A stretch of DNA of 64,000 nt from Clostridia bacterium (GCA_016278615.1 JADQBM010000054.1:23104-87103); one strand, 5' to 3'. Shown: positions 1-63,278, counted from the stretch's first letter. Program-made: numbers and translations. Notes: generated by a model not told the origin, from the letters alone.

Positions 1-2742
1 TTTCAAAATGCTATAGTTATTTATGAGGCTCCTTCTAGGGATGTAAACATAGTGGAACTTATGGAGCCAATACAATTAGATATACATAGTGAATTTCCTA
101 AAATAGTTCAAAATTCATTTAGAAAGAGAGAATTCAAGTATTGCGCATATGGGTATCCAGCATCAAAGCCCGAAGGACATTCTCAACAAGGTATAATACT
201 TGATGAATATATTGATATTAATGGCGATAGAATAATTGATGTATCGCTTGGAGAAGGAAGACTGACTGATTATAGAGGGTATTCTGGCTCGCCAGTTATT
301 TGTAATGGTCAACTGATAGGTCTTGCAATAGAGCAAACAGTTGGATTGAATACAGCACAGAGTATCAAAGTACTTGACTTTTCATCAGCAATAGACTATT
401 TAGAAGAAGATTGGTTATGTTTTGATGATTTCGTTGAAGAGATTATTTGTACTTTTCAGAGAGAATCCATTGATGAAATAGCAAGAAATAAAGCAAATGG
501 CAAATATGTTCCAGAAATATTTATTGAATTAGGTACAATGAAAGAATACTTAAGAGGGCTTAGTGATCCAGTTCTTTTTTTTGAGAAACATCTAGATTAT
601 ATTAGACGTCATAATTTTGAACAGTATAATTTACTTCTAGAAAGATATGGACTTACAAAGATTCAATTTATTGAAGGAGAGAATGAAGTATCACTTGATA
701 ATGTAAAAAACATTTCGGAGGAGATGATTATAAAATTAAAGGATATGCTAACCTACGTTACTAAATTGACCAGATCTTCTGATATAAGAGAGAATGTACC
801 AGATGAATATCTTGAATTATTTGATTTGACCTTTCATCAGCACAGACTTATGGGTCTTGAATGGGAGTTGAGGGATAGAATAAGTTTTTTTGAATCATTA
901 AAGGCCAATCAAATTCTTCTTACGGAAAAGGCAGGACAAGGTAAGACTAATTTACTCTGTGATTTTACTGAAAACGTACTTTTACGAAAGGGAATACCTT
1001 GCTTTTTCATTGGGATGAGAAACTTAATTGATGATGATATTTCAAAGACTATGATTAACTATTATAAATATGATTTATCAATTGAAGAATTATTTAAAGT
1101 ATTAGATTTCTATTCGCAGAATGTGCAGAAACCCTTTGTTATAGTATTAGATGCAATCAACGAACAAAAGGATGTAATCAACTCAAAAAATAAACTTTAT
1201 TCATTTTTAAATCAAGCAAGTTCTTTTAACAATGTAAAAGTAATCATGACAGCAAGAACAGAGTACTTTGACGAAAAATTCGGAGACATAAGTGATAAAT
1301 GCCCTCAAGTTGAACAGTTTACATCATATAATTGGAAGTCTCAACATTCAAAATTATGTGAAAGGGTATTTCATGGGTACATGGAACATTTTAACATTGA
1401 AATTCATGATATTGATGATTTGATTTATGAGCAATTGTCAAAGGATTTCTTGTTATTAAGAATGTTTTCGGAAGCATATCATGGCTTGAAAGAGTCTCCA
1501 ACAATAATTCCAGCTTTACTTCATTTATTTAGATATGAAATATTTGAGAAATATTACAATTATAAAAGAAAGAGCCTAAAAGAATGGGATAGGCACCACG
1601 GAGTTTATGATGGAGGTTCAACATATGACAGTTTGATAAATATAGTCACAGATTATATGATTCAAAATATTCGATTTAGCAATATTGAACGCTCGTTGAT
1701 TGTTGAGAAGGTTCAGAATAATCTATTAGTAAAGTTAATAGATGAAGATATCATATTTCGAGATGATATCAAGAAAACTAAAGGATTAATTGAAAAGAGT
1801 GTTGAGGTTATAAATTTTACATTTGATGAATTCCGTGACTTTTGTCTTGCAAAGAAAATAATAGAGAATTTTGATGATAGCAATCATGATGAATCAATTG
1901 AGGTAATAAATAATCTCACTCAAGATAACTTAGAGATTTCAGAAGGTGTTCAAAAGTACCTATTCTTTGCAAGTAAAAAACATCAAAATGACACATTTAC
2001 AAATATAATTATAAAACAAAAATGGTTTAATCATATATACTTTAACAATATTTTTTCTGTAAGTGAAGAATTTATTTTAGAGAGAGATGTGACATTTATT
2101 AAAAGGCTATTAACTAATATGAATTTCTATGAAAAGCATCTTGGTATAGTTATTATGATATACTCAAGTCTTATCAGAAGATATAATACACATGTCTATT
2201 CAAAATTAAACATTAGGTTATTAATTACGATCTTCGAGAACATTGATGATTCAGATTTTAGAATGTATGTACATGATATTTTTAGTTCAAGTTATGAGGA
2301 TAGATTCTCATATTATGGAAGAAAAGCAGAAAGAATTCCTATAGATATGTTAGTGAAAAAATTGAAATATTATATGAGGAAGTCTTTTAACGAAGATATA
2401 GTGATTTTTCTTTCTTATCTTCATTACAGAGGTATATATATACATGATTTTTTTGATTGGTGTATTGAGAAGTTCTCAAATCAATGCATTGAAATGTTTG
2501 AAAATTTAATTGATGTGAATGAAGAAATAGTTAATGAAGTTATCGGTCATACAGTTCAAGACCTCTCTTGTTACGAATTAGAACTTGATCATGAATTAAT
2601 TGACAGATGGGAGAACATCAAGAAGCGATGCGAAAGAAAAATGAATGTTGATAGTAGTGATTTAAGTATGTATACTGATCAGGAACTGGATGAAATGTTA
2701 AAAAAACTGGAAAGCGAATTAGGCATATGGGAGGAAGATTAA
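1..2742 (+). CDS. Trypsin-like serine protease domain fused to a STAND (NACHT-like) P-loop NTPase with a long helical C-terminal region; 5'-partial in this window
   Basis: Frame 1 has no stop between base 1 and the first ATG at 52, so the ORF probably starts left of the window. GYSGSPVICNGQLIGL matches the chymotrypsin-fold GxSGxP serine motif. AGQGKTN is a Walker A, FVIVLDAINE a Walker B, and VKVIMTART a NACHT-like segment. About 450 aa of helical C-terminus follows. Confidence 0.7.
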   Translation, partial: FQNAIVIYEAPSRDVNIVELMEPIQLDIHSEFPKIVQNSFRKREFKYCAYGYPASKPEGHSQQGIILDEYIDINGDRIIDVSLGEGRLTDYRGYSGSPVICNGQLIGLAIEQTVGLNTAQSIKVLDFSSAIDYLEEDWLCFDDFVEEIICTFQRESIDEIARNKANGKYVPEIFIELGTMKEYLRGLSDPVLFFEKHLDYIRRHNFEQYNLLLERYGLTKIQFIEGENEVSLDNVKNISEEMIIKLKDMLTYVTKLTRSSDIRENVPDEYLELFDLTFHQHRLMGLEWELRDRISFFESLKANQILLTEKAGQGKTNLLCDFTENVLLRKGIPCFFIGMRNLIDDDISKTMINYYKYDLSIEELFKVLDFYSQNVQKPFVIVLDAINEQKDVINSKNKLYSFLNQASSFNNVKVIMTARTEYFDEKFGDISDKCPQVEQFTSYNWKSQHSKLCERVFHGYMEHFNIEIHDIDDLIYEQLSKDFLLLRMFSEAYHGLKESPTIIPALLHLFRYEIFEKYYNYKRKSLKEWDRHHGVYDGGSTYDSLINIVTDYMIQNIRFSNIERSLIVEKVQNNLLVKLIDEDIIFRDDIKKTKGLIEKSVEVINFTFDEFRDFCLAKKIIENFDDSNHDESIEVINNLTQDNLEISEGVQKYLFFASKKHQNDTFTNIIIKQKWFNHIYFNNIFSVSEEFILERDVTFIKRLLTNMNFYEKHLGIVIMIYSSLIRRYNTHVYSKLNIRLLITIFENIDDSDFRMYVHDIFSSSYEDRFSYYGRKAERIPIDMLVKKLKYYMRKSFNEDIVIFLSYLHYRGIYIHDFFDWCIEKFSNQCIEMFENLIDVNEEIVNEVIGHTVQDLSCYELELDHELIDRWENIKKRCERKMNVDSSDLSMYTDQELDEMLKKLESELGIWEED

Positions 2743-3167
2743 TGATAATATATCCTATTGATTTGAATGACTTCAGCAGAAAGTATATAGTAATAAAGAG
2801 TCCTGATATGAGTCTCGAGTACATTATAAAGCAGTTTTTAAAACTTTCAGGAATGGATCCAGCTAAGTATGCAGGAAAACTTTTTTCAAGTATATTAACC
2901 AATTTTTTTTATGAAATCGAAGATTTGGAGCATCTTTATGAAAAATTTTATTTGTTAGAGTACGATTCTTTTGAAGATTATTTGTATAAAAAAATGCTAA
3001 TTGATAAGGAAGAAATAGATTTTTTGATCCCTAATCAAAAAGAGGGTGAAAAGTTGTATTTTGCTGATTTAGGGCATACCGTATCTAATAACTATGAGAA
3101 TTTATTCGAATATGAAGAAGAAAATCTCCTGTTAAAAATTAATGATGTTTTGGAGGTGATTAAGTGA
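2742..3167 (+). CDS. Hypothetical acidic protein (141 aa)
   Basis: ATG 2742 overlaps the upstream stop (TAATG, 2740-2744) and follows SD GGGAGGAAG (2729-2737). The track start at 2727 has no SD. Asp/Glu/Tyr-rich, with no motif I can name. Confidence 0.55.
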   Translation: MIIYPIDLNDFSRKYIVIKSPDMSLEYIIKQFLKLSGMDPAKYAGKLFSSILTNFFYEIEDLEHLYEKFYLLEYDSFEDYLYKKMLIDKEEIDFLIPNQKEGEKLYFADLGHTVSNNYENLFEYEEENLLLKINDVLEVIK

Positions 3168-3562
3168 AAATAAAAGCAGATTATATTACTAATAGTTCAT
3201 CGACTTCTTTCGTAATAATTACCGATGATGAACTTGGAAGAGATAAATTTTATAAATGGTTTGGAATAGACCTCGAATCGGATTTTACATACATATTTAA
3301 AGAGTTGTTTGATGCTGTCAAATATAACTCTAAACCTATCGAAGATGAAATTGAAAAGGGACAATCTTTAGATGATTTTCTTTCAATGTACCACTTAACG
3401 AGTGAAGTTGAAAGAGTGAAAAAAGCACTTGTATTAGGAAAGAAAGTCAGAGTAGGTAAATTGAAAAGTGATGAGGGTTACATACAAACATTTTTTTGCT
3501 TAGATTCATTTTGCATAGATAATGAGTTAGTGTATTTCAATGCATTAAGTAATGGGTGGTAA
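3164..3562 (+). CDS. Hypothetical protein (132 aa)
   Basis: The GTG start overlaps the upstream TGA (GTGA, 3164-3167). SD GGAGGTGA lies just upstream. No recognisable motif. Confidence 0.55.
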   Translation: MKIKADYITNSSSTSFVIITDDELGRDKFYKWFGIDLESDFTYIFKELFDAVKYNSKPIEDEIEKGQSLDDFLSMYHLTSEVERVKKALVLGKKVRVGKLKSDEGYIQTFFCLDSFCIDNELVYFNALSNGW

Positions 3563-4638
3563 GTATGGATGATATAGTTTTGATAGATAAGAAAAAAAGC
3601 TACTACTATTACTATTTCAACAAAAGCAAGGGCTTAAGTATAAGAAGCGAATACAAAGGTTTCGAAGACCCATTTTGGTCAATTGAGGGACCAGAACTTC
3701 TCGATGTTGCTATTACAAACTTTTGCGAAAGAGAATGCAGCTTTTGTTATAGAGATTCATCTATTGAAGGAAAACACATGAATTTGAATGACTTTGAGAC
3801 TGTTCTGAAAAATATGATAGAGTCAAATTGCTATCAGATTGCGTTGGGCGGAGGTAATCCGAATCAGCACCCTAATTTTGTTGAGATACTTAAAATGTGT
3901 AGAGAAAAATATAGAATAGTCCCCTCGTACACTACTAATGGAGATGGATTGACTAAAGAAATACTGGCAGCTAGCAAGCAGTATTGTGGAGCAGTAGCAA
4001 TTAGTTATTATAAGCCGTTTGAGAAGTTTATAGCTGCTTTAGAAAATATATTATCCTATAGCATAAAAACCAATATTCATTTTTTACTTACACCTGAAAC
4101 AATTAAAACAGCAATAGATTGGTTAAGGAATCCTCCTAAATATCTAAATGGTATTAATGCTATAGTCTTCTTAAATTATAAACCTGTAGGAGTTAATATA
4201 AGCAATAGCCTATTGCTCAAAAATAGCGATCTTATTAAAGAATTCTTCAATCTAATTAGCAAACATGATATTAGTCGATTCAAAATTGGTTTTGATAGTT
4301 GTACAGTTTCTGGAATAGTTGAAAATCTAAATTTTAATCCTAATTTTATTGAATCCTGTGAGGCAGGACGGTTTTCAGCATTTATTTCTGAAGACATGAT
4401 ATTATATCCTTGTTCCTTCATGGAGAGAAGCTCTGAAGGAACAGATTTAACTAACATATCTTTAAAAGAATCGTGGTTAAAATCAACAGACTTTCAATTT
4501 ATAAGGGATAAGATCAATTTAAATGCATGTAAAAATAACTGTAAATATGAAAGACACTGTAAAGGAGGATGCCCGATATTTAGTGAGATTAACATATGTA
4601 ATAATTTTTTATTTCAATCAGATAAAAGTCCAATATAA
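3556..4638 (+). CDS. Radical SAM enzyme with C-terminal SPASM/twitch-like Cys cluster
   Basis: NFCERECSFCY is the CxxxCxxC radical SAM cluster motif. ALGGGNP is a GGE-like SAM-binding motif and SYTTNG is typical of the SPASM subgroup. The C-terminal CKNNCKYERHCKGGCP forms a Cys cluster. The likely true start is ATG 3565 (SD GGGTGG 3554-3559), 3 nt after the upstream stop at 3560-3562. Confidence 0.8.
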   Translation: MVSMDDIVLIDKKKSYYYYYFNKSKGLSIRSEYKGFEDPFWSIEGPELLDVAITNFCERECSFCYRDSSIEGKHMNLNDFETVLKNMIESNCYQIALGGGNPNQHPNFVEILKMCREKYRIVPSYTTNGDGLTKEILAASKQYCGAVAISYYKPFEKFIAALENILSYSIKTNIHFLLTPETIKTAIDWLRNPPKYLNGINAIVFLNYKPVGVNISNSLLLKNSDLIKEFFNLISKHDISRFKIGFDSCTVSGIVENLNFNPNFIESCEAGRFSAFISEDMILYPCSFMERSSEGTDLTNISLKESWLKSTDFQFIRDKINLNACKNNCKYERHCKGGCPIFSEINICNNFLFQSDKSPI

Positions 4639-4770
4639 AGATTGATAATATTAATCTATAATATTTATTATCTATTGCTACTTACTTTTCTTAAGTATAC
4701 TATGAGTAATTTTAGGCATAATATAACAAAAAAATAAGATATATCAGCAATAGAGGGAGATGTAAGTAGC

Positions 4771-6063
4771 ATTAGCACAAACCTATATAGCCTAAAACCC
4801 TTAGGTATAAATACAGAATTTATAGAAAGCCAAACTAGTTATATATCGAGATTAGCGGAAGCGCACTTAGTCAGTGTAGGTATTCTTATAGCCAAAGAAG
4901 TTGCACCTATACTAGGAAAAGTTTATTTAAATAAGGATAGTCGTTTTTACGACTTTGCTATACAGTTAAATGCACTTGGGAATCAAGCAAGAGATTTTTC
5001 GTATGCTTTATCCATGCTAACTGGAGTATATAGTATTAATGAGCTTACGCTTGCATCTTGGAGCAATGTACTTCCTTCCAGAGAATTATTTAGCCAAAGT
5101 AAAAAATGGTGTCCTAAGTGTTTTGAGGATTGGAAAAAAAATAATCAAATAATTTATGAACCAATAATATGGAATTTTAAAGAAGTAAATATATGCAAAA
5201 TTCATGGTGTCAGATTGAAAACGGAGTGCCCCTATTGTTCTAAGCCGATACCTGTATTAACTAGAACATCAAGAAATGGCTTTTGCCCTTATTGTAGAAG
5301 TTGGTTAGGTTCAAATGATATAACCGATGAAATTGTTGATTCTAAACATAATTCTTGGAAGTATTTTGTAGTAAATAATATTGGAACCTTATTAAAAGCT
5401 AAAAGTGAAGAAAAAACTAATTGGTCACAAGACAATATTGTATCATTTTTAGAATCATTGATAGAAAAGACAGTCTGTGCCTTTTCACGTTGTTTTGATA
5501 TTCCTAAATCAACAGTAAGTTCATGGTTCGGAGACAATCATAAGCCAATTTTGCAGACTTTATTGAAAATATGTTATCGATTAGATATAAACATTATTGA
5601 AGTATTAAGCTCAAATGAATTACATGTTTCGTTGATATCTGAGAAAGATTATAATGATATCTCGAGAGAAAATAAAAATACTAATAATAGTAAAGTAAGA
5701 AGAAAAATAGATTGGGATAATGTAGAAGAAAAACTAATTGGAATAATAAATAATAAAGATTTTAACACTTCTTCAGTTCGTGAAGTAGCTAGAAACCTAA
5801 ATTGTAATGCGAGATTACTATATAGTCATTTTCCAGATTTGTGTAAAAAAATATCAGAAGATCACGATATTTTTATTAGGTATCAGAAGATACGAAAGGA
5901 TAAAGAAAAAAGACAGAAAGTCTTAGAAGTTACATTTGATTTATATAATCAAGGGGTATATCCTACTAGACGAAAAGTAGAAGCAATATTGGATTCGAAT
6001 ATTTCGCTACGAAGAAAAGATAATTATTCTATATGGAAAGATGCTGTAAAGAGTTTTCAATAA
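4771..6063 (+). CDS. tniQ: TniQ/TnsD-like transposition target-selection protein, paralog 1 (start codon uncertain)
   Basis: Zinc-ribbon pairs WCPKCFEDW, CPYCSKPI and FCPYCRSWLG, plus HTH-like PKSTVSSWFGDNHKPIL. It is collinear with the ORF at 10214-11512 over its whole length. The frame is open from 4738 and encodes the conserved N-terminus (LYSLKPLGINTEFIESQTSYISRLAEAHLVSVGILI). There is no ATG/GTG/TTG before 5014. ATT 4771 follows SD GAGGGAG (4753-4759). Confidence 0.6.
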   Translation: MSTNLYSLKPLGINTEFIESQTSYISRLAEAHLVSVGILIAKEVAPILGKVYLNKDSRFYDFAIQLNALGNQARDFSYALSMLTGVYSINELTLASWSNVLPSRELFSQSKKWCPKCFEDWKKNNQIIYEPIIWNFKEVNICKIHGVRLKTECPYCSKPIPVLTRTSRNGFCPYCRSWLGSNDITDEIVDSKHNSWKYFVVNNIGTLLKAKSEEKTNWSQDNIVSFLESLIEKTVCAFSRCFDIPKSTVSSWFGDNHKPILQTLLKICYRLDINIIEVLSSNELHVSLISEKDYNDISRENKNTNNSKVRRKIDWDNVEEKLIGIINNKDFNTSSVREVARNLNCNARLLYSHFPDLCKKISEDHDIFIRYQKIRKDKEKRQKVLEVTFDLYNQGVYPTRRKVEAILDSNISLRRKDNYSIWKDAVKSFQ

Positions 6064-6183
6064 TAAGTGGAAGAATTTGACTTAACGCTTAATATAATGT
6101 AGAATATTGTAAAATAATCATTTGGTGATATATATGAAAAAATTTAAGTGTATAAAAAATTTAAAATTTATAGGTTTTTAAAG

Positions 6184-6220
6184 ACCGACTAACTAGCTTA
6201 GTCGGTTTTATTTTTTTTTG
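6184..6220 (+). terminator. Rho-independent terminator after tniQ paralog 1
   Basis: ACCGACTAA / TTAGTCGGT perfect 9-bp stem with loop CTAGC, followed by a T-run. Confidence 0.7.
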
Positions 6221-6272
6221 TAAAAAATAAATTAAAAAAATTTTAAAAATTAAAATAAAAAGGAGAATTTAT

Positions 6273-8948
6273 ATGTTTACTTCATATGAATATGAACAAT
6301 GGTGTAAGAAACTTTTTTTGACGGATAGTGCAATTGAAATAATAAATAGAGTCAGAGAAAGTGAGCCTTCGCGTCGTGTGGGAGGTGGGAGAAAAAATGT
6401 GGTTGGTGCTTATCCAAGTAAAAAAATGGGTGTCTCTATTCAGTTTGAAAGCCATCAGGTAGAACTACCAGGTTTATATCTTAAAGAATACGATGATTCT
6501 GTTATAGAAATGTACGATCAACCTCCATCTATAAAGATAAGATACAAATCTCTTACTGAGAAAGTTGTAACACCATTTTATACTCCAGATTATTTTGTGA
6601 TTTATGACGATAGGGCTGGCTGGGAGGAATGGAAGACCGAGGAAGAACTAGGCGAGCTAGCTCGAAAATCGCCAAATCGGTATGTAAAGGTTCATGGAAA
6701 GTGGCGATGCCCTCCTGCTGAAGAGTATGCAAAACAATTTGGATTACATTATTGGTTGAAATCGTCATCTGAAATAAACTGGATATTTCACAGAAATATA
6801 ATTTTTCTTGAGGACTATCTATTAGATACGCAAACTATTATTGATTCTGAAATTATCAATACTGTATTCTCTTATATTCGTAATAACCCAGGAGTGTTTT
6901 TAATAGAAGTATTAGAAAACTTTAAAGAAGAAGTTGACAATATTTATTATATGATTGCAAGAAAGTTGATTTACGTTAATTTGGAGCAAGAACTGCTCAC
7001 TGAGCAAGAGTATACTCGTGTATTTGTAAACAAAGAAAGTTCTTTATCCTTCAAAACATTGAACACTACTAGAAAAGTCCCTACCTATACCAACTATTCA
7101 TTGAATATTGAACCTGGTAATAAAATCCTATGGGATGGCAATACGTGGGTGATAATGAACTTGGGAGAAAAGAATATTTCACTCATATCAGATGATGAAA
7201 ATGTTTTAGCAATTCCCAAAGAACAGTTTTACAGTTTGATTTCCGAACAGCATATTAAGAGTGATGAGAGCGAGGTAATAAAAGAGAGAAATTCAATAAT
7301 AAATTCAAAATTGATAAATGCTAACAAACAAGCGCTGGAAGAAGCTAATCGTCGATATCAAATAATATTGCCTATTATTGAAGGTAAAAAAACGAAAGAG
7401 CTTGGGGATGTTGGTGTGACTGAACGAACTGTGAGGAATTGGATAAAGAGTTACAAACAAGCTGAAACAGATTACGGGGCAGGATTTATTGGATTGATTC
7501 CTAAATTTAAAGATCAAGGAAATAGAGTCCCCCATCTTCCAACAGAAACGTTAGAAACAGTTGATATCTTTTTAGGTGAAAATGAAGATGTGACTAATCA
7601 AAGCATTAACGTATTGTATGGGAAGCTATGTAAGCTGTGCGAGGAAAAAGGAATTATTAGTCCTAGCATGAAAAGTTTTAGAAAAAAAATAAAATCAAGA
7701 CCGAAAGATAATAAAATTCTAAAGACTATGGGAAGCAGAGCAGCTTACCAACATGAAGAATTTATATGGTCATTGGATATAACAACCCCTAGGCACGGAG
7801 AGCGACCTTTTGAAATTGCGCATATAGATCATACGGAACTTGATTTGCAACTTGTACATTCAAGAACAAAAAAATCTATGGGTAGACCTTGGCTTACTTT
7901 AATGGTAGATGCATTTTCAAGAAGAGTACTAGCCTTTTATATCACTTTTGATAATCCATCCTACAGAAGCAATATGATGGTTATTCGAGAATGTGTAAGA
8001 AGATTTAATAGGCTTCCGCAAACAATTGTATCTGATGGTGGACGCGATTTTAAAAGCACTTATTATGATACATTACTAGCATACTACGGAGTGACTAAGA
8101 AGCTACGTCCTCCTCATAAAGCACGATTTGGTTCAGTGGTAGAGAGAGTGTTTGGTACAACTATGTCCCAAATAATTAATAACCTAAAAGGAAACACAAA
8201 AATAATGAAAAATAATACTAGGCAAGTTACTAAATCAGTCAATCCTATAAATCATGCTGTATGGACATTGCCTAGCATATATGAACTTTTAAAAGAGTAT
8301 TTCTATGATTTTTATGATACTACCGAACATACAACGCTTGGAGAATCACCAAGAGAAGCTTTTGAGGGAATTCAATCTATATCTGGGAAAAGGCCATTCA
8401 GATATATTCCTTATAATGAAGAGTTTATAATTATGACACTTCCTGCTGCTAAGAAAAATAATGGTACTGCTAAGGTTGACTCCCAGCGAGGAGTGAAAGT
8501 AAATTATTTTTACTATAATAATGAACAATTTCGGAAGCCAAGCTTAGATAAAGCTCGAGTTCAAGTTCGTTATGACCCTTGGAATGTAGGAGTGGTTTAT
8601 TGCTATATTAATGGAAAGTGGACAAAAGCTTATTCTGATTTTTATGCAATTTTTAAAAACAGAACAGAAAAAGAGATTATAATTGCTTCTGACGAACTAC
8701 GAAGCCAAAAAAAGATGCATGGAAAAAAATATGTGGTTACGGCAAGAAGGTTAGCAGATTTTTTAATAACTGCTGAATATAAAGAAGAAGAACTAATAAA
8801 GCAACGTCAACGAGATGAAGAGATGGCACCTCAATTACGAGTAATTAGTGGGTTTCAAGAAGAGGAGTTAGAAAAAGAAGATGAACTGGATGAAGTGAAT
8901 AAAGAATTTGATAAATTACTTAATTTTAATTTGGATGAAGAAGACTAA
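6273..8948 (+). CDS. tnsAB: Tn7-like transposase: TnsA-like endonuclease domain fused to TnsB-like DDE transposase
   Basis: The N-terminal ~190 aa carries a TnsA-type pattern: FESHQVE (E), YTPDYFV (D), WEEWKT (E-x-K). DDE core: AHIDHTELD (D), IVSDGGRDFKS (D), SVVERVFGT (E). SD AAAAGGAGA precedes the ATG. Confidence 0.8.
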   Translation: MFTSYEYEQWCKKLFLTDSAIEIINRVRESEPSRRVGGGRKNVVGAYPSKKMGVSIQFESHQVELPGLYLKEYDDSVIEMYDQPPSIKIRYKSLTEKVVTPFYTPDYFVIYDDRAGWEEWKTEEELGELARKSPNRYVKVHGKWRCPPAEEYAKQFGLHYWLKSSSEINWIFHRNIIFLEDYLLDTQTIIDSEIINTVFSYIRNNPGVFLIEVLENFKEEVDNIYYMIARKLIYVNLEQELLTEQEYTRVFVNKESSLSFKTLNTTRKVPTYTNYSLNIEPGNKILWDGNTWVIMNLGEKNISLISDDENVLAIPKEQFYSLISEQHIKSDESEVIKERNSIINSKLINANKQALEEANRRYQIILPIIEGKKTKELGDVGVTERTVRNWIKSYKQAETDYGAGFIGLIPKFKDQGNRVPHLPTETLETVDIFLGENEDVTNQSINVLYGKLCKLCEEKGIISPSMKSFRKKIKSRPKDNKILKTMGSRAAYQHEEFIWSLDITTPRHGERPFEIAHIDHTELDLQLVHSRTKKSMGRPWLTLMVDAFSRRVLAFYITFDNPSYRSNMMVIRECVRRFNRLPQTIVSDGGRDFKSTYYDTLLAYYGVTKKLRPPHKARFGSVVERVFGTTMSQIINNLKGNTKIMKNNTRQVTKSVNPINHAVWTLPSIYELLKEYFYDFYDTTEHTTLGESPREAFEGIQSISGKRPFRYIPYNEEFIIMTLPAAKKNNGTAKVDSQRGVKVNYFYYNNEQFRKPSLDKARVQVRYDPWNVGVVYCYINGKWTKAYSDFYAIFKNRTEKEIIIASDELRSQKKMHGKKYVVTARRLADFLITAEYKEEELIKQRQRDEEMAPQLRVISGFQEEELEKEDELDEVNKEFDKLLNFNLDEED

Positions 8949-8987
8949 GTAATAGTTGTGCATTTTTCCGTATGAGAGGTTAAAAAA

Positions 8988-10169
8988 ATGATAAAAAGTA
9001 TTAGTAATAGTGATATGTCCCAAAAACTAAATCATAGGTTTTCAGAAGAACTGATAGAAGGTGACAAAGAAATAAAGATGGAATATTTTAAGAATTATGT
9101 TGTTGAACATAAGTTTTTAGAAAATGCTATTATTGATACAATAGGTTCTCTTACAAACCATGTTTCTGAAAGTTTAGTTTTTGTATGTGGTCCATCAGGT
9201 GTTGGAAAAAAAGAGCTTATTAGGGGAGTCACAAAAAGACTAAATAGTATGGCAGAGAAAAAAATCATAGAAAATCCAGGATGCATTCCTGTAGTACAAG
9301 TTGAGGCTTTAGCACCACAACAAGGTAGTTTTAATTTTAATAACTTATATAAAAGTATACTAAAAACCATGAATGAGGTATTGCTAAATTCTAAAATATC
9401 GTATAGTGATATAACAAGTGTTGATTCACTTGGACAAAGCATTACTTTATCAAAGGTACAAAAGGCTGAATATCATGAGGTGCTACAAAATGCATTAAGA
9501 TATAGAGATGTAATGGCTTTAATAATTAATGAAGCACACCATATGTTAAGAATATCAGGCAGTAAAAAATTCAACTGGTCAATAGATTTATTAAAATCAC
9601 TAACGAATGAAAGCCAAACGCCCATTGTTTTAGTTGGGACTTATGCACTAGCTTCGTACTTAGTAGATTTTGAAAGTGTGATAACTGATCAAATAAATCA
9701 AAGGGCTAGAATAATAAATTTTCCTCGATATAGACAAGATGTAGTAGAAGAGGTAGATGTTTTTTTAAAAACTGCAAAGAAGCTTTTGCTAAATATGCCC
9801 CTTGAGAAAACATCAGAACATCTTATAGATAAGGACTGGAGATATTTTTACAAGTATTCTTTAGGTTGCATTGGAACGTTAAAAAATTGGCTTATGCGGG
9901 CCTATTCAGTTGCTTTAGATTCTCAATCAAAAACTCTAAAAAAAGAACATTTAGATCAAACAAAGATTACAGGCTTAAGGAGTTCGGGAATGCTTAATAG
10001 CATTATTGAAGGTGAAAGAACTATGGAAAGTATACTTTCAGAAGGGGACATAAGTATAAAATTAGGTTTTGGTAAAACAAAGGAGAAAACTGAAAACAGT
10101 ACAGACACCCAAACTAATAAAACAACAAAGCCATTCGAGAGAAAATCTAAAAGGGATGCAGTAAGATAA
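8988..10169 (+). CDS. tnsC: TnsC/TniB-like AAA+ transposition ATPase
   Basis: P-loop VCGPSGVGKKEL and Walker B-like ALIINEAHH. It sits directly after the transposase, as in Tn7/Tn5053-type operons. Confidence 0.7.
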   Translation: MIKSISNSDMSQKLNHRFSEELIEGDKEIKMEYFKNYVVEHKFLENAIIDTIGSLTNHVSESLVFVCGPSGVGKKELIRGVTKRLNSMAEKKIIENPGCIPVVQVEALAPQQGSFNFNNLYKSILKTMNEVLLNSKISYSDITSVDSLGQSITLSKVQKAEYHEVLQNALRYRDVMALIINEAHHMLRISGSKKFNWSIDLLKSLTNESQTPIVLVGTYALASYLVDFESVITDQINQRARIINFPRYRQDVVEEVDVFLKTAKKLLLNMPLEKTSEHLIDKDWRYFYKYSLGCIGTLKNWLMRAYSVALDSQSKTLKKEHLDQTKITGLRSSGMLNSIIEGERTMESILSEGDISIKLGFGKTKEKTENSTDTQTNKTTKPFERKSKRDAVR

Positions 10170-10213
10170 ATATATAAAAAAGATAGAAACAAGAGAAACA
10201 AGGGGGAATTTAT

Positions 10214-11512
10214 TTGGATTTATTTTCATATAACGAGATAAGTTCTTTATATCATGTTAAACCAATAGGTATAGGAACGGCTAATGTCGAGAGCCTTTCA
10301 GGATATATGAAAAGGTTAGCAGAAGCGTATATGGTTTCAGTTGGAATTTTAATAAGAAAAGTGATAATTCCTAATATAAATAGGGATTATTTAAGAGTAG
10401 ATGATTTTGCAGGAAATTATAGCAATAACATAAATACGCTATCATCAGACATATCAAAAGCTGTGGTTAAAATTCTTGAAACAAGAACATATAATGACAA
10501 TCTTATATTTTTAACTATGGGTATATGGAGAGATTTTTTGCATCCTAGAAAAATGTTTCGAGAATATCATGCATGGTGTCCAATTTGTTACGAAGAAAGA
10601 TTACAGAGAGGGGCACCTATATATGAAGAATTAATATGGAACTTTAATGATGTAGAAACATGCATAAAGCATCAAGTAAAATTAGTGCAGATTTGTCCTT
10701 ATTGTAACTGTCGGATGAAAATATTAAGTTCCTTATCACGAGTGGGATATTGTGATAAGTGTAATTCTTGGTTAGGCTTAAAAAGCTACAAGAGTGATAT
10801 AGTTACGGAAGAAACAAAAGAATGGGATAACTGGGTTTATAAAAATGTTGGACAGCTACTTTCAGACGCGCCAACTTTTTGTTTTAAAAAAAATGATCAA
10901 TTTAGAGATAATTTAAATGAGTTTCTTAAAGTTAAATATGTATCCCAATACAAACTTGCACGAGTATTAAAGATTTCTAAAAGTGTAATTCAAGGATGGA
11001 TTGCTGGCAATAAACCAACTCTATCAAGCATATTGAAACTATCCTATATATCAGGGTATTCAGTAAGAGAATTGCTTACAGAAGATATTAAACCTTTAGG
11101 ACAAGTTTTTAAAAAGAAAATTGTGCGAAAAGACAATATCAAGAACAACATTGATAAAGAAAAGATTAAAATTGAATTACATAAAGCAATTGAATTAAAT
11201 AATGGTCTGTCTTTATCAAAGTTTTGTCAACATAATGGTATAGTACCAAGAACAGTAAAAAAACATTTTCCTAAAGAGACAAAAAAATTACTAGATAATT
11301 ATAATGAATATAAAAAGAACTGCAAAATAGAAAGACATAATTTTATAATTAGCACAATGCATAATCTTCACAATAGAGGTATATATCCAGGAAGAAAAGC
11401 ATTAATAAAAGAAACTGGTAAAAACCTTGTATTAAGTAGTCAAGATAGAGAAATATGGACAAGAACATTAAAAGTATTAGGCTATAATATTAGATATTAT
11501 AATAAGATATAA
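10214..11512 (+). CDS. tniQ: TniQ/TnsD-like transposition target-selection protein, paralog 2
   Basis: TTG start after SD AAGGGGGA. WCPICYEE, CPYCNCRM and YCDKCNSWLG zinc-ribbon pairs. HTH-like SKSVIQGWIAGNKPTL. Confidence 0.75.
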   Translation: MDLFSYNEISSLYHVKPIGIGTANVESLSGYMKRLAEAYMVSVGILIRKVIIPNINRDYLRVDDFAGNYSNNINTLSSDISKAVVKILETRTYNDNLIFLTMGIWRDFLHPRKMFREYHAWCPICYEERLQRGAPIYEELIWNFNDVETCIKHQVKLVQICPYCNCRMKILSSLSRVGYCDKCNSWLGLKSYKSDIVTEETKEWDNWVYKNVGQLLSDAPTFCFKKNDQFRDNLNEFLKVKYVSQYKLARVLKISKSVIQGWIAGNKPTLSSILKLSYISGYSVRELLTEDIKPLGQVFKKKIVRKDNIKNNIDKEKIKIELHKAIELNNGLSLSKFCQHNGIVPRTVKKHFPKETKKLLDNYNEYKKNCKIERHNFIISTMHNLHNRGIYPGRKALIKETGKNLVLSSQDREIWTRTLKVLGYNIRYYNKI

Positions 11513-11789
11513 TTGCACGGAAATTAGTGATTAAGTATACAGAAAATTTTTAAACCAAAAACAAAATCCTTATTACATTTATAGTAATGTGGATTTATAA
11601 TTTTGTTATATAATATGGTAAAATATTGATGTGTTAGATAATTTATCTTATAATGATGTTTAATTTCATTGTGTTACTCGTTATTGTTTTGTAAAATATA
11701 ATTAAGAAAAGTATGGACAATTTCTAGAGATGTCAAAAGTCTCTGGATTATAGATATAGAAAAAAGAAATGAATACAGGAGGACACCCC

Positions 11790-13370
11790 GTGCCAACATT
11801 AAACTGGATAGGAAAAGAAAAGGTAATTAATCATCATTTAGATGTACCATATAGAGTGTTAGACCGTAAATACAGTTTTGATGAAAACGGACAACATAAA
11901 GAGGATAATGTTAGTGAAAATAAGATTATTCGTGGTGACAATTTGGAGGCATTAAAAGCACTTTTACCACAGTACGAAGGTAAAGTTAAGTGTATTTACA
12001 TAGACCCACCATATAATACAGGCGAAGAAAAATGGATATATAATGATAATGTAAATGACTATAAATTAAAAAAATGGCTTGGTGAAGTTGTGGGAAAAGA
12101 AGGAGAAGATTTATCAAGACATGATAAGTGGCTTTGTATGATGTATCCACGTTTAAAATTATTACATAAATTATTAGATAAAATAAATGGTGTTATTTTT
12201 ATTTCGATAGATGAAAATGAATTTGCTAATCTAAAACTTATTTGTAATGAAATCTTTGGTAGTAATAAACATATTGCAACGATAGCTTGGCAAAAAAGAT
12301 ATTCACGAGAAAATAGAGAAGCAATTGGAGACGCTCATGAGTATATTTTAATCTATGCTATGGATAAAAAACAATTTAAGGAAAATAGACATTTAGTACC
12401 TATGAATGAAAAACAAGCAAAAGTATACAAAAATTCTAATAATGATCCTAAAGGAAGATGGAGACCAATACCTATGACTGCACAAGCAGGACATGCTACA
12501 AAAGATCAGTTCTATCCAATTGTAGCACCAAAAGGAGAGATTCATTATCCTCCTGAAGGTAGATGTTGGAGTATGATGGAAGATACATTTAATGAGCTTC
12601 TTTCACAAGGCAGAATTTATTTTGGTAAAAACGAAAATTCGCAGCCAAATGTTATTAGATACTTGTCAGAAGTTGATGGGGTTGTTCCTTGGACATGGTG
12701 GCCCCACGAAGAAGTTGGACATACAGATGGTGCAAAAAAAGAAATCTACTCAATTCTAGGAAAAAAAGTTGCTTTTGATACTCCAAAGCCAGTTACATTA
12801 ATAATGAGAATTATTCAAATGATAACTGATAAAAATGATATTATACTTGACAGTTTTGCTGGAACAGGTACAACCGCACATGCAGTTTTGAATATTAACA
12901 AAGCAGATGAAGGCAATCGCAAATTTATATTAGTTGAAATGGAAGATTATGTTGAAAGCATAACTGCTGAACGTGTAAAACGCATTATTAACGGTTCTAG
13001 TGATTTTGAAGGTACTGGTGGGAGTTTCAGCTTTTATGATTTAGGAGAACCACTTTTAACTGAAAATCAAAATTTGAACGAAAATATTTCTGTTGATAAA
13101 ATTAGAGAATATATTTATTTTATGGAAACTAAGGCAATCTTACCGAGAAATAATGAGAAATATTATCTTGATACATATAACAATACAGCATACTATTTCT
13201 TTTATGAAAAAGATAAAGTTACAACTTTAAATTATGAATTTTTAAAGACAATTAAAGTTACAGCAGAAAATTATGTTATTTATTCAGATATTTGTTCTTT
13301 AAGTGAAGATGAACTATTAAAATATCATATCACGTTTAAAAAAATTCCACGTGATATAGCTAGACTGTAG
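11790..13370 (+). CDS. mod: Type III restriction-modification methyltransferase (Mod)
   Basis: IYIDPPYNTG (DPPY catalytic motif) and DSFAGTGTTAHAV (SAM-binding motif I). GTG 11790 lies 7 nt after SD AGGAGG (11777-11782). The in-frame ATG at 11769 has no SD. Confidence 0.85.
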   Translation: MPTLNWIGKEKVINHHLDVPYRVLDRKYSFDENGQHKEDNVSENKIIRGDNLEALKALLPQYEGKVKCIYIDPPYNTGEEKWIYNDNVNDYKLKKWLGEVVGKEGEDLSRHDKWLCMMYPRLKLLHKLLDKINGVIFISIDENEFANLKLICNEIFGSNKHIATIAWQKRYSRENREAIGDAHEYILIYAMDKKQFKENRHLVPMNEKQAKVYKNSNNDPKGRWRPIPMTAQAGHATKDQFYPIVAPKGEIHYPPEGRCWSMMEDTFNELLSQGRIYFGKNENSQPNVIRYLSEVDGVVPWTWWPHEEVGHTDGAKKEIYSILGKKVAFDTPKPVTLIMRIIQMITDKNDIILDSFAGTGTTAHAVLNINKADEGNRKFILVEMEDYVESITAERVKRIINGSSDFEGTGGSFSFYDLGEPLLTENQNLNENISVDKIREYIYFMETKAILPRNNEKYYLDTYNNTAYYFFYEKDKVTTLNYEFLKTIKVTAENYVIYSDICSLSEDELLKYHITFKKIPRDIARL

Positions 13371-13381
13371 GTGGTGACAAA

Positions 13382-15979
13382 ATGGAGTTAAAAAAATATC
13401 AAAAACAAGTACTAAAAGACCTTACAGATTATCTAAGAGTTTTAAATGAGACTTATGATTTAAACACGTCCTACATTAAGTACTGGGAAAATAAAGATGT
13501 TAAGGTTGGTTTGGGGGGGTTACCTAACTATAAAGATACAATAAGTAGAACACCAAATATTTGCTTTAAAGTGCCAACAGGTGGAGGAAAAACATTTATT
13601 GCGTCTGCATCGCTAAAGCTTTTTTTTGATCATATGTCGTTATCGAAATCAAAGGTTGTTGCTTGGCTTGTTCCATCAAATGCAATACTAGAACAAACAA
13701 TTCGCACTTTGAGCGATGTAACTCACCCTTATAGACAAAAAATTGAGTTGGATTTTAACGGCAGAGTTGAGGTGTTGGCTAAAGAGCAACTACTAAATGG
13801 GCAAAGCTTTAATCCTACTTCTATAAAGGAACAACTTACTATTTGTGTTCTTAGTTACGATTCTATCCGTAGTAATAAAAAAGAGGGTAGAAAAGTCTAC
13901 CAGCAAAATAGCCAATTGGCACCGTTTGAAGTATTTTATAAAACTCCTGAAACTTTGATTGAAAATGTAGACAATACGGCACTAATTCAAGTTTTAAATC
14001 AGTTATCGCCTATTGTGGTTGTTGATGAAAGCCATAATGCGGAATCTGATTTAAGTGTTGAAATGATTAAGAATCTTAATCCATCATTTGTGCTTGATTT
14101 GACTGCGACACCGAAAAAGAATAGTAATATTATTTCTTATGTTGATGCTAGAGAACTAAAAAAAGAGAATATGGTCAAATTACCTGTTGTCGTGTATAAC
14201 CGTAATAGCAAGCAAGATGTTGTATCAGATGCAATACATCTTCGCGAAAATCTTGAAAAACAAGCCCTAGAGAAAGAAGTACAAACAGGAACATATATAC
14301 GCCCAATTGTTCTTTTTCAAGCTCAGCCAAAAGGAAAAGAGGATAATGCAACTTTTGAAAAGTTAAAGGAAGAATTAATTGGACTTGGGATACCAAAAGA
14401 ACAAATAGCTATAAAAACATCAAATATAAATGAAATTAAAGGTACTGACTTAATAAGTAGAGATTGCGAAGTAAGATATATTATCACGGTAAATGCTTTA
14501 AAGGAAGGTTGGGACTGTTCTTTCGCATATATTCTCGCTACACTTGCCAATAAAACTTCAAAAGTTGATGTGGAGCAAATTTTAGGTCGTGTATTGCGGT
14601 TACCATATGCAACAAAACATAAAAGCTCTGCTCTTAATTTGGCATACGTTTTAACCTGCTCAAATGATTTTAGAGATACACTTGAGAATATCGTAAAGGG
14701 TTTAAATAAAGCAGGATTTAGTAAAAAAGATTGTAGAATTGGTGAAATCGTAGGAAGTGAGATAGAACAACCACAATATGCTCAAGAAGAACAATTATCT
14801 ATAAAAGAAAGTAATGTGAAAGAAGAATTCTTGGACATTGATTTTAATATAGTTAAAGAAAATATCGAAACTTTAAAAGACAAAATTAATAAAGATAATA
14901 TTTCTGAAATGATAGAAATTGCTATAAAACAAAATGAAGAGTATGAAAGTAAGATAAAAAAATTTGAAGCAGAAGGTTTTTTTGGAGGTGAGATTGGTGG
15001 ATTTATGAATCAGTATAAAATGAATGAGCAGTATAAAAATTCAATGAATATTCTTCCGCAGTTTGTCCATAAGGAAGCGGTGCCTCTATTGGGAATAGCT
15101 GAATCTGTTTTGCTTACAAAAGAGTATTTGAATGATGGGTTCACACTTGCTGATAAGGACGCACAAATTAATCTTCAACTATCGACTAATGATGTATATA
15201 AAGTTGATATTTCTGTAAACGGTGAAGCTGTTCCTAAATATCAAAAAGCAACGGAAAAAGAAAGTAAATATTTCAAAGAATATTTTGACACATTGCCAAG
15301 TGAAAGTAAAATTAAAATATGTAAAGACATGTTATATCAACAGCTTAATAAATCTGATAGCACGGTTTCGATGGATTTGCGTAACTATATAGATAGAATT
15401 GTAGATAATATGACAAAAGATGAATTAGCTGTGCTTGAAACATCTATTACTACCTATTCAAGAAAGATAAAAGAAAAAATCGATCAATTACAACTTGAAT
15501 ATAGAGAAAAACAATTCAAAAAGATGATCGATACAGGCGAAATTATATGTGAGCCGTATTATAGTTTGCCTATGGTTATTTGTCCTGTTAATAGTATTGA
15601 TTCTATTCCTAATTCATTATATGAAGCAGAAGGCGATATAAATGATTTTGAACATCAAGTTATTACGGAAATTTCAGGTCTTGAAAATATTTTGTGGTGG
15701 CATAGAATCATTGATCGCAAAGGTTTTTGTTTAAATGGCTTTATCAATCATTATGCTGACTTTATGATTATGACTAAAAATGGTACACTCGTTATAATAG
15801 AGACAAAAGGAGATTATCTTGATAATACAGACAGTAAGCAAAAATTGTTGCTGGGCAAACTATGGCAGGCAAATGCAGGTAATGGCTATAAGTATTTTAT
15901 GGTATTTAATAATAAAGACTTAAAACTTGACGGAGCTTATGTATTAGATGAATTTATAGGCGTGATAAAGAAGTTATAG
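13382..15979 (+). CDS. res: Type III restriction enzyme Res subunit (SF2 helicase plus PD-(D/E)xK nuclease)
   Basis: Helicase motifs FKVPTGGGKTFIA (I), VVVDESHNA (II), LDLTATP (III), QILGRVLRLP (VI). C-terminal ADFMIMTKNGTLVIIETKG is a nuclease motif. Confidence 0.85.
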   Translation: MELKKYQKQVLKDLTDYLRVLNETYDLNTSYIKYWENKDVKVGLGGLPNYKDTISRTPNICFKVPTGGGKTFIASASLKLFFDHMSLSKSKVVAWLVPSNAILEQTIRTLSDVTHPYRQKIELDFNGRVEVLAKEQLLNGQSFNPTSIKEQLTICVLSYDSIRSNKKEGRKVYQQNSQLAPFEVFYKTPETLIENVDNTALIQVLNQLSPIVVVDESHNAESDLSVEMIKNLNPSFVLDLTATPKKNSNIISYVDARELKKENMVKLPVVVYNRNSKQDVVSDAIHLRENLEKQALEKEVQTGTYIRPIVLFQAQPKGKEDNATFEKLKEELIGLGIPKEQIAIKTSNINEIKGTDLISRDCEVRYIITVNALKEGWDCSFAYILATLANKTSKVDVEQILGRVLRLPYATKHKSSALNLAYVLTCSNDFRDTLENIVKGLNKAGFSKKDCRIGEIVGSEIEQPQYAQEEQLSIKESNVKEEFLDIDFNIVKENIETLKDKINKDNISEMIEIAIKQNEEYESKIKKFEAEGFFGGEIGGFMNQYKMNEQYKNSMNILPQFVHKEAVPLLGIAESVLLTKEYLNDGFTLADKDAQINLQLSTNDVYKVDISVNGEAVPKYQKATEKESKYFKEYFDTLPSESKIKICKDMLYQQLNKSDSTVSMDLRNYIDRIVDNMTKDELAVLETSITTYSRKIKEKIDQLQLEYREKQFKKMIDTGEIICEPYYSLPMVICPVNSIDSIPNSLYEAEGDINDFEHQVITEISGLENILWWHRIIDRKGFCLNGFINHYADFMIMTKNGTLVIIETKGDYLDNTDSKQKLLLGKLWQANAGNGYKYFMVFNNKDLKLDGAYVLDEFIGVIKKL

Positions 15980-16065
15980 AGAAATATACATTTTGTGAAG
16001 TTGAAAAATATAATTAATAGTCTGGTCTTAAGTAGGGTGAAGTGGTAAAGCTTAATCCTTAACAT

Positions 16066-16192
16066 TGTTTTGAATTCAAGGAAAATTTATAGTTCTTTTT
16101 TGAATTGAAGGAAAAATTATGATTCCAAATGCAAAAAAGTTATCCTCCTAAAAGATTGATTTTAGGAGGATTTTTTGAAAAGTTATGGTTCC
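16066..16192. repeat. Three direct repeats, candidate transposase-binding sites of a Tn7-like end
   Basis: TTTTGAATTCAAGGAAAATTTATAGTTC (16068-16095), TTTTGAATTGAAGGAAAAATTATGATTCC (16097-16126) and the shortened TTTTGAAAAGTTATGGTTCC (16173-16192). All three are in the same orientation. Confidence 0.35.
16143..16176 (+). terminator. Rho-independent terminator downstream of res
   Basis: TCCTCCTAAAA / TTTTAGGAGGA perfect 11-bp stem with loop GATTGA, then TTTTTT. Confidence 0.75.
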
Positions 16193-16222
16193 AAAAGAAG
16201 AAAACTTATAAGAATTGCCACA

Positions 16223-16830
16223 GACGCAGAGGGAGCAAGGAGGGAGAGCATCTCCCTCGTTAAGAGACTGATGTTGTCAGTCGGAGTTCCTCTTCAGGGG
16301 TGACAGGCAGAATACTTTCTGCCGCCAAGAGGGGACAGAGTCCCCTATGGAGAGCGCCAGCGACAGGAGGTTGTTCGAATCATCTCGGGAGTGCCAGAAG
16401 CAATCCTCGTTTTCCTTGGATTTTCAAGGAAGATGAGGATTTTTGTGTTCAAGAGAACTTGCAGTTGATTACGAGTAGTTATAGATTCCGTCCTTGTGAC
16501 TGCCTGGGGGTGACAGGCAGAATACTTTCTGCGGCCAAGAGACTTAAATGGGCAGAGCCCGGGGACATTCCTCAAAGAAATTCACCGTCTTGTAGAGGTG
16601 TGTCCCATTTCCTTATAAGAGCGCCAGCGACAGGAGGTTGTTCGAATCATCTTGAAGCCCTAGCTCAAATCTCTGATTTGATGTGCAGGTCTCATGCAAC
16701 ACGAAAAGTGGAACTCTCCAATCTTTGATTGGAAAGAGTTGCCATTCGCAACGAAACAGAAATTTTAGATTTCGTTGTTGAGACTGTGTAAATCTTAGAT
16801 TTCGTCTTCGTGACTGCCTAGAGTGCCAAA
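16223..16830. repeat. GC-richer mosaic repeat region built of hairpin words with internal duplications
   Basis: GGGGTGACAGGCAGAATACTTTCTGC(C/G)GCCAAGAG occurs at 16297-16331 and 16507-16541. AGAGCGCCAGCGACAGGAGGTTGTTCGAATCATCT occurs at 16351-16385 and 16618-16652. The segment 16652-16757 is related to units at 58751-58957 and 62025-62125. Confidence 0.8.
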
Positions 16831-32614: not shown

Positions 32615-32695
32615 GTCTAAATGAAAGGGCAAACCTCTTGAAAGGGAGAGACGCAAAACTATAGGGCCTTAAAGGGCAGCCAGTTTCCAAGTTAG
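32615..32695 (+). promoter_or_regulatory. c-di-GMP-I (GEMM-I) riboswitch aptamer
   Basis: GGGCAAACCUCUUGAAAGGGAGAGACGCAAAACUAUAGGGCC...GGGCAGCCAGUUUCC. It contains GGCAAACC, a GAAA-capped hairpin, ACGCAAA and AGCCAGUUnCC in the canonical order. It lies ~90 nt upstream of the MCP start. Confidence 0.75.
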
Positions 32696-32781
32696 ATTTT
32701 TTCTTTTAGAAAGGAGGCGTATAATACTATAACTTTAGTCAGACAAAATATAAAATTGAAAGCAAGATGAGGAGGATTTAT

Positions 32782-52165: not shown

Positions 52166-52195
52166 TATATATATAACGAAAGGTTGGTTGATAGA

Positions 52196-57265: not shown

Positions 57266-57269
57266 TCAG

Positions 57270-63275: not shown

Positions 63276-63278
63276 AAA

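Follow-up and report, generated by a model that had tools for sequence, protein, structure and literature searches.

We analyzed a 64,000-nucleotide stretch of DNA from a Clostridia bacterium (GCA_016278615.1 JADQBM010000054.1:23104-87103; hereafter the window, with positions counted from its first letter), of which positions 4,639 to 11,512 are shown. This region is the core of a single intact Tn7-family transposon of the TnsAB-fusion, tRNA-targeting clade, inserted just downstream of tRNA-Arg(CCT) in a clostridial chromosome. Two genes predicted to encode TnsD-type target selectors, here called Q1 and Q2, flank the transposase and regulator genes, giving the order Avs1-like defence operon, Q1, tnsAB, tnsC, Q2, type III restriction-modification (R-M) system. 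The core genes are:

4771–6063, plus strand: Q1, upstream TnsD-type selector, 430 amino acids from a probable ATT start at 4771 (first canonical start, ATG, at 5014)
6273–8948, plus strand: tnsAB, TnsA endonuclease fused to TnsB DDE transposase, 891 amino acids, identified by Pfam and PDB 9BW1
8988–10169, plus strand: tnsC, AAA+ regulator, 393 amino acids (TniB, 1.9e-11; AAA_22, 1.9e-10)
10214–11512, plus strand: Q2, downstream TnsD-type selector, 432 amino acids, with a TTG start 7 nt after a Shine-Dalgarno (SD)-like GGGGGA

Transposase and regulator

An earlier reading of the sequence alone (the original prediction) had proposed a Tn7-like core with a TnsA-TnsB fusion, and protein domains, structural homology and catalytic residues all agree with it. 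The 891-residue protein matched TnsAB of the CRISPR-associated transposon PmcCAST (PDB 9BW1) with an E value of 9e-232 over residues 6–867, at 45% identity over the full length, and contained the Pfam domains TnsA N-terminal (PF08722; E value 2.8e-10, 41 bits against a cut-off of 26.5), rve (1.9e-09) and Mu-transpos_C (3e-06). When aligned with PmcCAST TnsAB, the TnsA part retained the catalytic residues E59, D106, E119 and K121, and the TnsB part the DDE triad D519, D588 and E624; in McCAST, mutating the equivalent of D106 yields cointegrates. The motifs quoted in the prediction were located at residues 58–64 (FESHQVE), 103–109 (YTPDYFV), 117–121 (WEEWK), 517–521 (HIDHT), 587–593 (SDGGRDF) and 622–627 (VVERVF). 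TnsAB-fusion homologues numbered 1,136 at an E value of at most 1e-5 and came from cyanobacteria, bacilli, clostridia and others; nearly all of the best 120 of these 1,136 were ~880–935 amino acids long.

The TniB/TnsC-like ATPase predicted to follow tnsAB is the 393-residue product of 8988–10169. Its Walker A motif is GPSGVGKK, and its Walker B motif (window 9515–9532, residues 176–181) reads IINE, not IIDE. The same IINE was found in L004, L062 and L065, while the aspartate is kept in L006 and in a Bacillus cereus plasmid copy (L numbers denote the loci compared). Inactivation of TnsC by the aspartate-to-asparagine change was considered and set aside, as four of the six relatives have it. 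For each of the four core proteins, a homologue of solved structure exists.

The window was correctly predicted to be free of CRISPR arrays and cas genes: domain scans detected no cas domains in the 11 element genes or in 30 other large open reading frames (ORFs) of the window, and a repeat scan of the window gave no CRISPR-like spaced repeats. No TnsE was found among the element proteins in Pfam, NCBIfam and PADLOC scans.

Two TnsD-type selectors

Both selectors matched the Pfam family TniQ (PF06527; 1e-13 and 1.7e-14) and aligned with each other end to end, at 30% identity over 434 residues (E value 3e-59), across the CxxC pairs, the helix-turn-helix and the C-terminal N-x-G-V/I-Y-P motif. 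The proposal of two TniQ paralogs with shared motifs was thus sound, and their broad label as TniQ/TnsD-like proteins holds at the level of the family but can be narrowed. Q1 matched PmcCAST TnsD over residues 4–429 (E value 3.5e-69) and Q2 over residues 10–393 (7e-54), whereas the short TniQ that partners Cascade was matched by either protein in the N-terminal core only. As both are full-length TnsD homologues by this comparison, the element appears to have two TnsD-type readers; these are predicted to be full-length DNA-reading proteins that split long ago, judging from their 30% identity.

Among relatives, the upstream copies were 42–58% identical to one another and ~28–30% identical to any downstream copy, and they formed one clade in a rough neighbour-joining tree. 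The downstream copies were more variable, ranging from 285 to 542 amino acids, with an extra domain in L004 and a different lineage in L002.

Transposon ends and insertion point

The element was delimited with L001, a Logan contig in which 16,324 nt are identical to the window and a further 1,767 nt extend it on the upstream side. A blind search for TGT/ACA termini that required an exact duplication of 5 bp and a match at 15 or more of 24 terminal bases gave exactly one solution in L001 (58/17989, GACGC) and exactly one in the relative L002 (4667/20437, ATTTT). Because the end pair and its duplication are unique in L001, we assign the element a length of 17,932 bp, from −1709 to 16222 of the window and from 58 to 17989 of L001. 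The end features within the window are:

16060–16222, minus strand: tRNA-distal transposon end, terminal sequence ...AAGAATTGCCACA, with four TnsB-site-like repeats
16223–16227, unstranded: target-site duplication GACGC, perfect over 5 bp, other copy at L001 53–57

The inverted ends (TGT...ACA) are imperfect, and both carry arrays of ~15-bp transposase-site repeats. The proximal end has three putative TnsB-site repeats and the distal end has four; at the latter, the copies at 16080–94, 16110–24, 16176–90 and the terminal 16200–22 all have the same orientation. The tRNA-proximal end is at L001 position 58, outside the window, and begins TGTTGCAATGACC... directly after the GACGC at L001 53–57. 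The contig reads ...GTTCGAATCATCTCGGGAGTGCCA, 23 nt later GACGC, and then TGTTGCAATGACCATATCTTTTCC and two further copies of the ACCATA..TTTTCC repeat. Positions 1–29 of L001 exactly match the 3' end of the tRNA-Arg(CCT) of L007, a decayed copy of a like element, so placing 28 nt between the CCA of tRNA-Arg(CCT) and the start of the window's element, in a fixed orientation. Just before the insertion point, L001 35–57 is an inverted copy of tRNA-Arg positions 44–66. In an element-free locus, tRNA-Arg(CCT) would run directly into ...CATCCGACGCAGAGGGAG....

Q1 and Q2 both lie inside this single pair of inverted ends with its 5-bp target duplication. The original prediction had allowed that the upstream paralog might prove to be a remnant of a separate decayed element; the shared ends, the duplication and the flanking layout seen in relatives instead assign both selectors to one element.

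Start of the Q1 gene

The original prediction had opened its region at 4738 and cited 5014–6063 for the upstream selector; the gene lies where it was placed, but its start needs correction. Frame 1 is open from 4738 to 6063 (441 codons, preceded by TAA at 4735–4737) and contains no ATG, GTG or TTG upstream of ATG 5014 (codon 82), which means that the 441-codon frame does not qualify as a conventional ORF. The 81 codons ahead of ATG 5014 correspond to the initial helical portion of the TniQ core, and in comparison with L007 they showed nonsynonymous and synonymous divergences (dN, dS) of 0.126 and 0.553, with dN below that of the rest of the gene. Across Q1, synonymous sites differed by 39–57% from L007. 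By this measure, the N-terminus is under purifying selection.

The start-less configuration was also found in L007, L002/L003 and L006. In these loci and in L004, an in-frame ATT lies downstream of a G-rich SD-like motif, at the codon equivalent to 4771, and the ATT at 4771 aligned both with the start ATG of the ortholog P0133 and with the NCBI-annotated ATT start in Desulfosporosinus sp. FKB (P0121, begins MSPRLY). Translation of Q1 is probably initiated from this AUU, preceded by the following leader:

4694–4770, plus strand: Q1 leader, with a -10-like ATAATA, an SD-like GAGGGAG at 4752–4758 and an out-of-frame ATG-TAA at 4760–4765

Over 110 nt around the start, the leader is ~90% identical to L007 at the nucleotide level, well above the identity at synonymous sites, and the sequence upstream of it gave no alignment to L007. 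Window 4752–4773, spanning GAGGGAG, ATG-TAA and ATT, differs from L007 by one base. We rejected a frameshift or re-initiation after the start-stop ATG-TAA, as the relatives contain no consistent upstream out-of-frame ORF, and for the same reason favor simple AUU initiation.

A conserved hairpin before tnsAB

Q1 and tnsAB are separated by two features:

6134–6181, plus strand: 15-codon ORF (MKKFKCIKNLKFIGF), with GGTGAT upstream and a stop codon abutting the hairpin
6181–6219, plus strand: intrinsic-terminator-like hairpin, a 12-bp stem at 6181–6209 followed by a T-run

The terminator that had been proposed after Q1 was recovered as this stem and T-run. The hairpin was present in 9 of 11 clostridial loci, with no broken pairs in eight sequences and compensatory changes at three pairs; in bacilli, the Q1 and tnsAB genes almost abut. 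The 15-codon ORF is possibly a leader peptide. Short ORFs of 15–40 codons with their own SD motif also precede tnsAB in L002, L006, L007 and L056. They end in or enter the conserved AAAGACCG...CGGTCTTT hairpin, a layout like that of a leader-peptide attenuator. Q1 forms its own unit, closed by a conserved terminator, and its probable weak AUU start would hold its level low.

Relatives and their layout

All the intact relatives that we examined from clostridia and bacilli have the order selector-tnsAB-tnsC-selector. The clostridial loci are L002, L004, L006, L056, L062 and L065, as well as L016 with its Q1 frameshifted; the loci from bacilli are L014, L018, L020, L021 and L026-28, and the layout also occurs on the Bacillus cereus plasmid pBFI_1 (L061), where the end search did not find the element ends. 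With Q1 lying within the ends and the layout recurrent, we conclude that Q1 was not left behind by another element. In relatives from cyanobacteria, acidobacteria and Chloroflexi, tnsAB-tnsC instead comes first, with one to three selector genes after it and the final one facing the tRNA gene.

Query of the genome collection with a single TnsAB protein gave no confirmed relative, while an alignment of upstream selectors did work as a query. A metagenome scan gave five loci, none extending to the attachment site, and a search of the phage collection gave no match.

Several loci showed further arrangements. In L018 (17030–17080) and L056 (10880–10950), elements meet head to tail with 5 bp between them, the junction in L018 reading ...GTCACA-GTTTT-TGTGACA...; such stacking is as expected from repeated homing to one site. 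In L063 and L066 (10001–11453), a transposon end carries a solo Q1-like gene oriented toward tRNA-Ser(TGA), and the Chloroflexi locus L024 (9938–14818) has three tandem TniQ-family genes beside tRNA-SeC.

Attachment sites and targeting

The mapped sites were tRNA-Arg(CCT) for the window's element and L007, at 28 nt each, and the transfer-messenger RNA (tmRNA) gene for L002 of Desulfosporosinus sp. FKB, whose element begins 29 nt after it. L004 can be assigned indirectly to tRNA-Arg(CCT), its downstream flank having the same tRNA-like unit (described below) with a 25-nt copy of the tRNA-Arg 3' end. In L063 the distance was 25 nt from tRNA-Ser, and the solo genes of L063 and L066 are distant and Q1-like. 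The tRNA-side ends of L004, L006, L016 and L065 lie beyond the 10-kb flanks taken in; the tmRNA of L002 was found by Rfam and missed by ARAGORN, and the absence of tmRNA elsewhere was judged by Rfam only. The suggestion that the element recognizes two attachment sites was not borne out among the relatives, which mapped at tRNA-Arg(CCT) or tmRNA, with no single element type at two.

In the Q1 tree, the tRNA-Arg elements (window, L007 and L004) form one subclade and the L002 Q1 belongs to the other; the L002 Q2 is likewise an outlier. As both L002 proteins are divergent, both paralogs covary with the site in the mapped loci. L006 is mixed, its Q1 falling with that of L002 and its Q2 with those of the tRNA-Arg elements. 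Two weak pointers suggest Q1 as the tRNA reader, namely, its greater similarity to the validated TnsD and the occurrence of Q1-like genes alone beside tRNA-Ser. Indirect signs of mobility are the equivalent placement of homologous elements by different stable-RNA genes and the tandem arrays.

Homing of PmcCAST, McCAST and CyCAST suggests how the element would work. A TnsD-type selector would bind the tRNA gene and recruit the AAA+ protein TnsC; this would activate TnsA-TnsB to excise the element by cutting both strands and to reinsert it at a set spacing downstream, leaving the tRNA gene intact. One selector would serve tRNA-Arg(CCT) and the other a second target. The two selectors are most likely alternative, protein-guided target choices, and use of two attachment sites by the element is plausible. 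Overall, we consider it probable that the locus is a single tRNA-homing element with two TnsD readers as alternative choices, of which Q1 is expressed at a low level from its own unit.

Alternative explanations

Several observations weigh against this interpretation. The proximal end was seen solely in a Logan contig, identical to the window where both overlap, and the contig carries just the last 29 nt of the tRNA gene. About two-thirds of the Q1 orthologs have a canonical start (ATG or GTG), limiting AUU to a subset. The Walker B substitution means that TnsC activity is not guaranteed, though it is common to most of the relatives compared. There is no experiment or natural case of one element type at two attachment sites. 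Finally, in PmcCAST, McCAST and CyCAST, TnsD-directed homing drops when a second TniQ-family protein is present, and the second selector could therefore be a modulator and not a second pathway.

This last possibility, in which Q1 selects no target and instead inhibits or modulates transposition as a TniQ-family protein titrating TnsC, would also suit the apparently weak expression of Q1 from an ATT start and ahead of its own terminator. We consider it quite improbable: Q1 keeps the entire C-terminal DNA-binding part of the validated tRNA-reading TnsD, to which it is nearer than Q2, and in L063 and L066 Q1-like genes occur alone at a transposon end, immediately next to tRNA-Ser. Joint action of Q1 and Q2 on a single site, perhaps as a hetero-oligomer bound to the tRNA gene, would explain why the two are always coresident in intact relatives, why both keep the full TnsD architecture, and why every mapped copy is at one stable-RNA gene. 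However, relatives with a single TnsD insert at tRNA genes without a partner (L011 at tRNA-Val, and published assays of TnsABC with TnsD), Q2 is exchangeable, as seen from the other lineage in L002 and the extra domain in L004, and Q1 stands in a separate, terminator-closed unit; we find joint action unlikely. That Q1 is a decaying pseudogene or the relic of a separate, older element might be read from the lack of ATG, GTG and TTG before codon 82, from gene callers shortening it to 349 amino acids, and from the decayed elements and tandem arrays in L007, L016, L018, L056, L063, L066 and L067. This alternative is largely refuted, and we leave it a very slight chance, since Q1 lies inside the ends and duplication of the element, its 441 codons are open with an N-terminus under purifying selection, the start-less form is kept in L007, L002/L003 and L006, and orthologs occupy the same position in two classes of Firmicutes.

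Our preferred reading of two alternative TnsD readers can be taken further. Throughout the clostridial and bacillus branch of the TnsAB-fusion clade, one paralog might guide insertion to tRNA-Arg(CCT) and the other to another stable-RNA gene, for example tmRNA, or to mobile DNA, with Q1 throttled by the conserved AUU and by a terminator or leader-peptide switch before tnsAB. We offer this extended version tentatively, as a rather unlikely possibility; if true, it would be a mode of pathway choice undescribed for Tn7-like elements.

Comparison with known systems

The design of a TnsAB-fusion, tRNA-targeting element with two TniQ-family proteins is already published (Hsieh & Peters 2022; Faure 2023). 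In cyanobacteria, the TnsAB-fusion clade resides mostly at tRNA genes read by a TnsD-like protein (Hsieh & Peters 2022, PMC9881144); it often has a second TniQ and inserts 29 ± 1 bp after the tRNA (PMC9881144), which the distances of 28 nt (L001 and L007) and 29 nt (L002) fit. In addition, 1,048 "dual tniQ-tnsD" loci, including pairs of tnsD, have been reported (Faure et al. 2023, PMC10293859), and duplication followed by new function has been proposed for these genes (PMC10293859).

The closest structural reference, the type I-B2 PmcCAST of a Peltigera membranacea cyanobiont (PDB 9BW1, 8V32), shares with our element TnsA-TnsB in one polypeptide, TnsC, and insertion ~29 bp past a tRNA gene. 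In contrast to PmcCAST, the element has no Cascade genes, CRISPR array or short TniQ, and its second selector is a full-length TnsD; the selector genes flank tnsAB-tnsC instead of being placed after them, its tns genes point away from the tRNA-side end, and it resides in a clostridium and targets tRNA-Arg(CCT). Non-CRISPR "secondary TniQ" elements of cyanobacteria (PMC9881144) resemble it in transposase clade, tRNA sites, two TniQ-domain proteins, cargo accumulation and unusually arranged transposase sites at the ends. The cyanobacterial loci examined have the order tnsAB-tnsC-tniQ-tniQ with the last gene abutting the tRNA-side end, whereas here Q1 is upstream in its own unit and cargo lies on either side of the core. 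The dual tniQ-tnsD loci similarly have two TniQ-family genes per element, among them cases of "two tnsD genes", but those are in tandem (PMC10293859), while here the pair is split by tnsAB-tnsC and the split is kept across clostridia and bacilli. With Escherichia coli Tn7 the element shares a heteromeric cut-and-paste transposase that combines the activities of TnsA and TnsB, a TnsC adaptor, TnsD-type recognition of a conserved gene with downstream insertion in one orientation, TGT/ACA ends, a 5-bp duplication and the idea of two targeting pathways. It differs from Tn7 in the fusion of TnsA to TnsB, in having a TnsD paralog as the second selector and no TnsE, in targeting a tRNA gene and not glmS, and in the cargo that separates the att-side end from the tns genes.

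Searching the literature for TnsAB elements of Firmicutes gave nothing relevant. In the literature we found no description of the split flanking layout conserved in Firmicutes, of tns genes directed away from the tRNA-side end and bordered by cargo on each side, of tmRNA as an insertion site of the TnsAB-fusion clade, or of a non-AUG start of the upstream selector or a conserved hairpin before tnsAB.

Cargo and other features of the window

The remaining features of the element are cargo:

L001 381–1565, upstream of the window: Avs1a-like metallo-beta-lactamase (MBL)-fold gene (Avs1a match, 1.5e-79)
1–2742, plus strand: 3' part of a gene for a 991-amino-acid trypsin-like protease/STAND NTPase (PADLOC: Avs2, 3.4e-24; Avs1b, 1.7e-18)
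2742–3562, plus strand: two small ORFs of 141 and 132 amino acids with no family match, co-oriented with and overlapping the neighbouring cargo genes
3565–4638, plus strand: radical SAM/SPASM protein, 357 amino acids (Radical_SAM, 2.8e-12; TIGR04085, 29.6 bits, cut-off 27)
11769–15979, plus strand: type III R-M system, mod at 11769–13370 (MTase_III, 3.6e-197) and res at 13382–15979 (REase_III, 9.8e-76)

The upstream cargo (L001 381–6405; window 1–4638) forms a five-gene operon encoding the Avs1a-like MBL-fold protein, a shortened Avs1b/Avs2-like protease-STAND protein whose gene starts 233 nt before the window, the two small proteins and, as the final gene, the radical SAM/SPASM protein. The same operon was found in L004 (208–8292) in the opposite orientation, including the pair of small ORFs and with the addition of an ATP-grasp (MvdD/RimK-like) gene and two unannotated ORFs. 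It may be an undescribed variant of AVAST type 1.

Directly after the transposon (16290–16397 and 16500–16829) are two tandem units of ~210 nt, in each of which GGGGTGACAGGCA... is accompanied by three hairpins and by the 25 3'-terminal nt of tRNA-Arg(CCT), CCA included. One such unit is equivalently placed in L004 (19860–19965), where its first and second hairpins differ by compensatory changes: GGCAGAA/TTCTGCC in the window is GGCATAC/GTATGCC in L004, and GGGGAC/GTCCCC is GGGGGC/GCCCCC. The fold z-score of the unit was -3.9, and the units gave no Rfam or ARAGORN match. The unit might represent a tRNA-like RNA, or else a miniature remnant of integrase type with a displaced tRNA 3' end. The second unit is split by a 168-nt insert (16652–16819), the sequence of which recurs as 88-nt inverted repeats (58854–58941 and 62015–62102; 97% complementary) flanking a 3-kb segment with radical-SAM and major facilitator superfamily transporter genes; it resembles a small dispersed repeat of a mobile or structured kind.

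From ~16.9 kb on, the window is ordinary clostridial chromosome, with no cas genes or integrases in the scans. It contains three paralogous genes for methyl-accepting chemotaxis proteins (26664–28727, 29053–31695 and 32767–35376), the third preceded by a cyclic di-GMP-I riboswitch at 32618–32691 (Rfam, 59.6 bits). Tandem arrays at 45575–45735 and 52037–52168, built of a 36–44-nt unit (ACTACTCCGAAGGAGTC...TTTAAACTTAA) with a small hairpin, are located just before genes for a tRNA-adenosine-deaminase-like protein and a Glu/Gln-tRNA synthetase; they have no spacers and are not CRISPR-like. GATAA-rich repeats (AGATAAGAGATAACAGATAA) are dispersed between genes at 49628–49818, 55623–55899, 57108–57271, 61756–61938 and 63269–63397, frequently as inverted pairs around genes.

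Significance

These results do not overturn current understanding. They add a fully delimited clostridial example to the TnsAB-fusion clade, a group studied almost solely in cyanobacteria. The element is another vehicle that places anti-phage systems, here an Avs1-like operon and a type III R-M system, next to a tRNA gene. The combination of a weak start codon and a terminator suggests how the dosage of a selector might be set. The clade serves as a chassis for programmable DNA insertion, and a natural pair of tRNA-type readers could be compared to learn how TnsD is retargeted.

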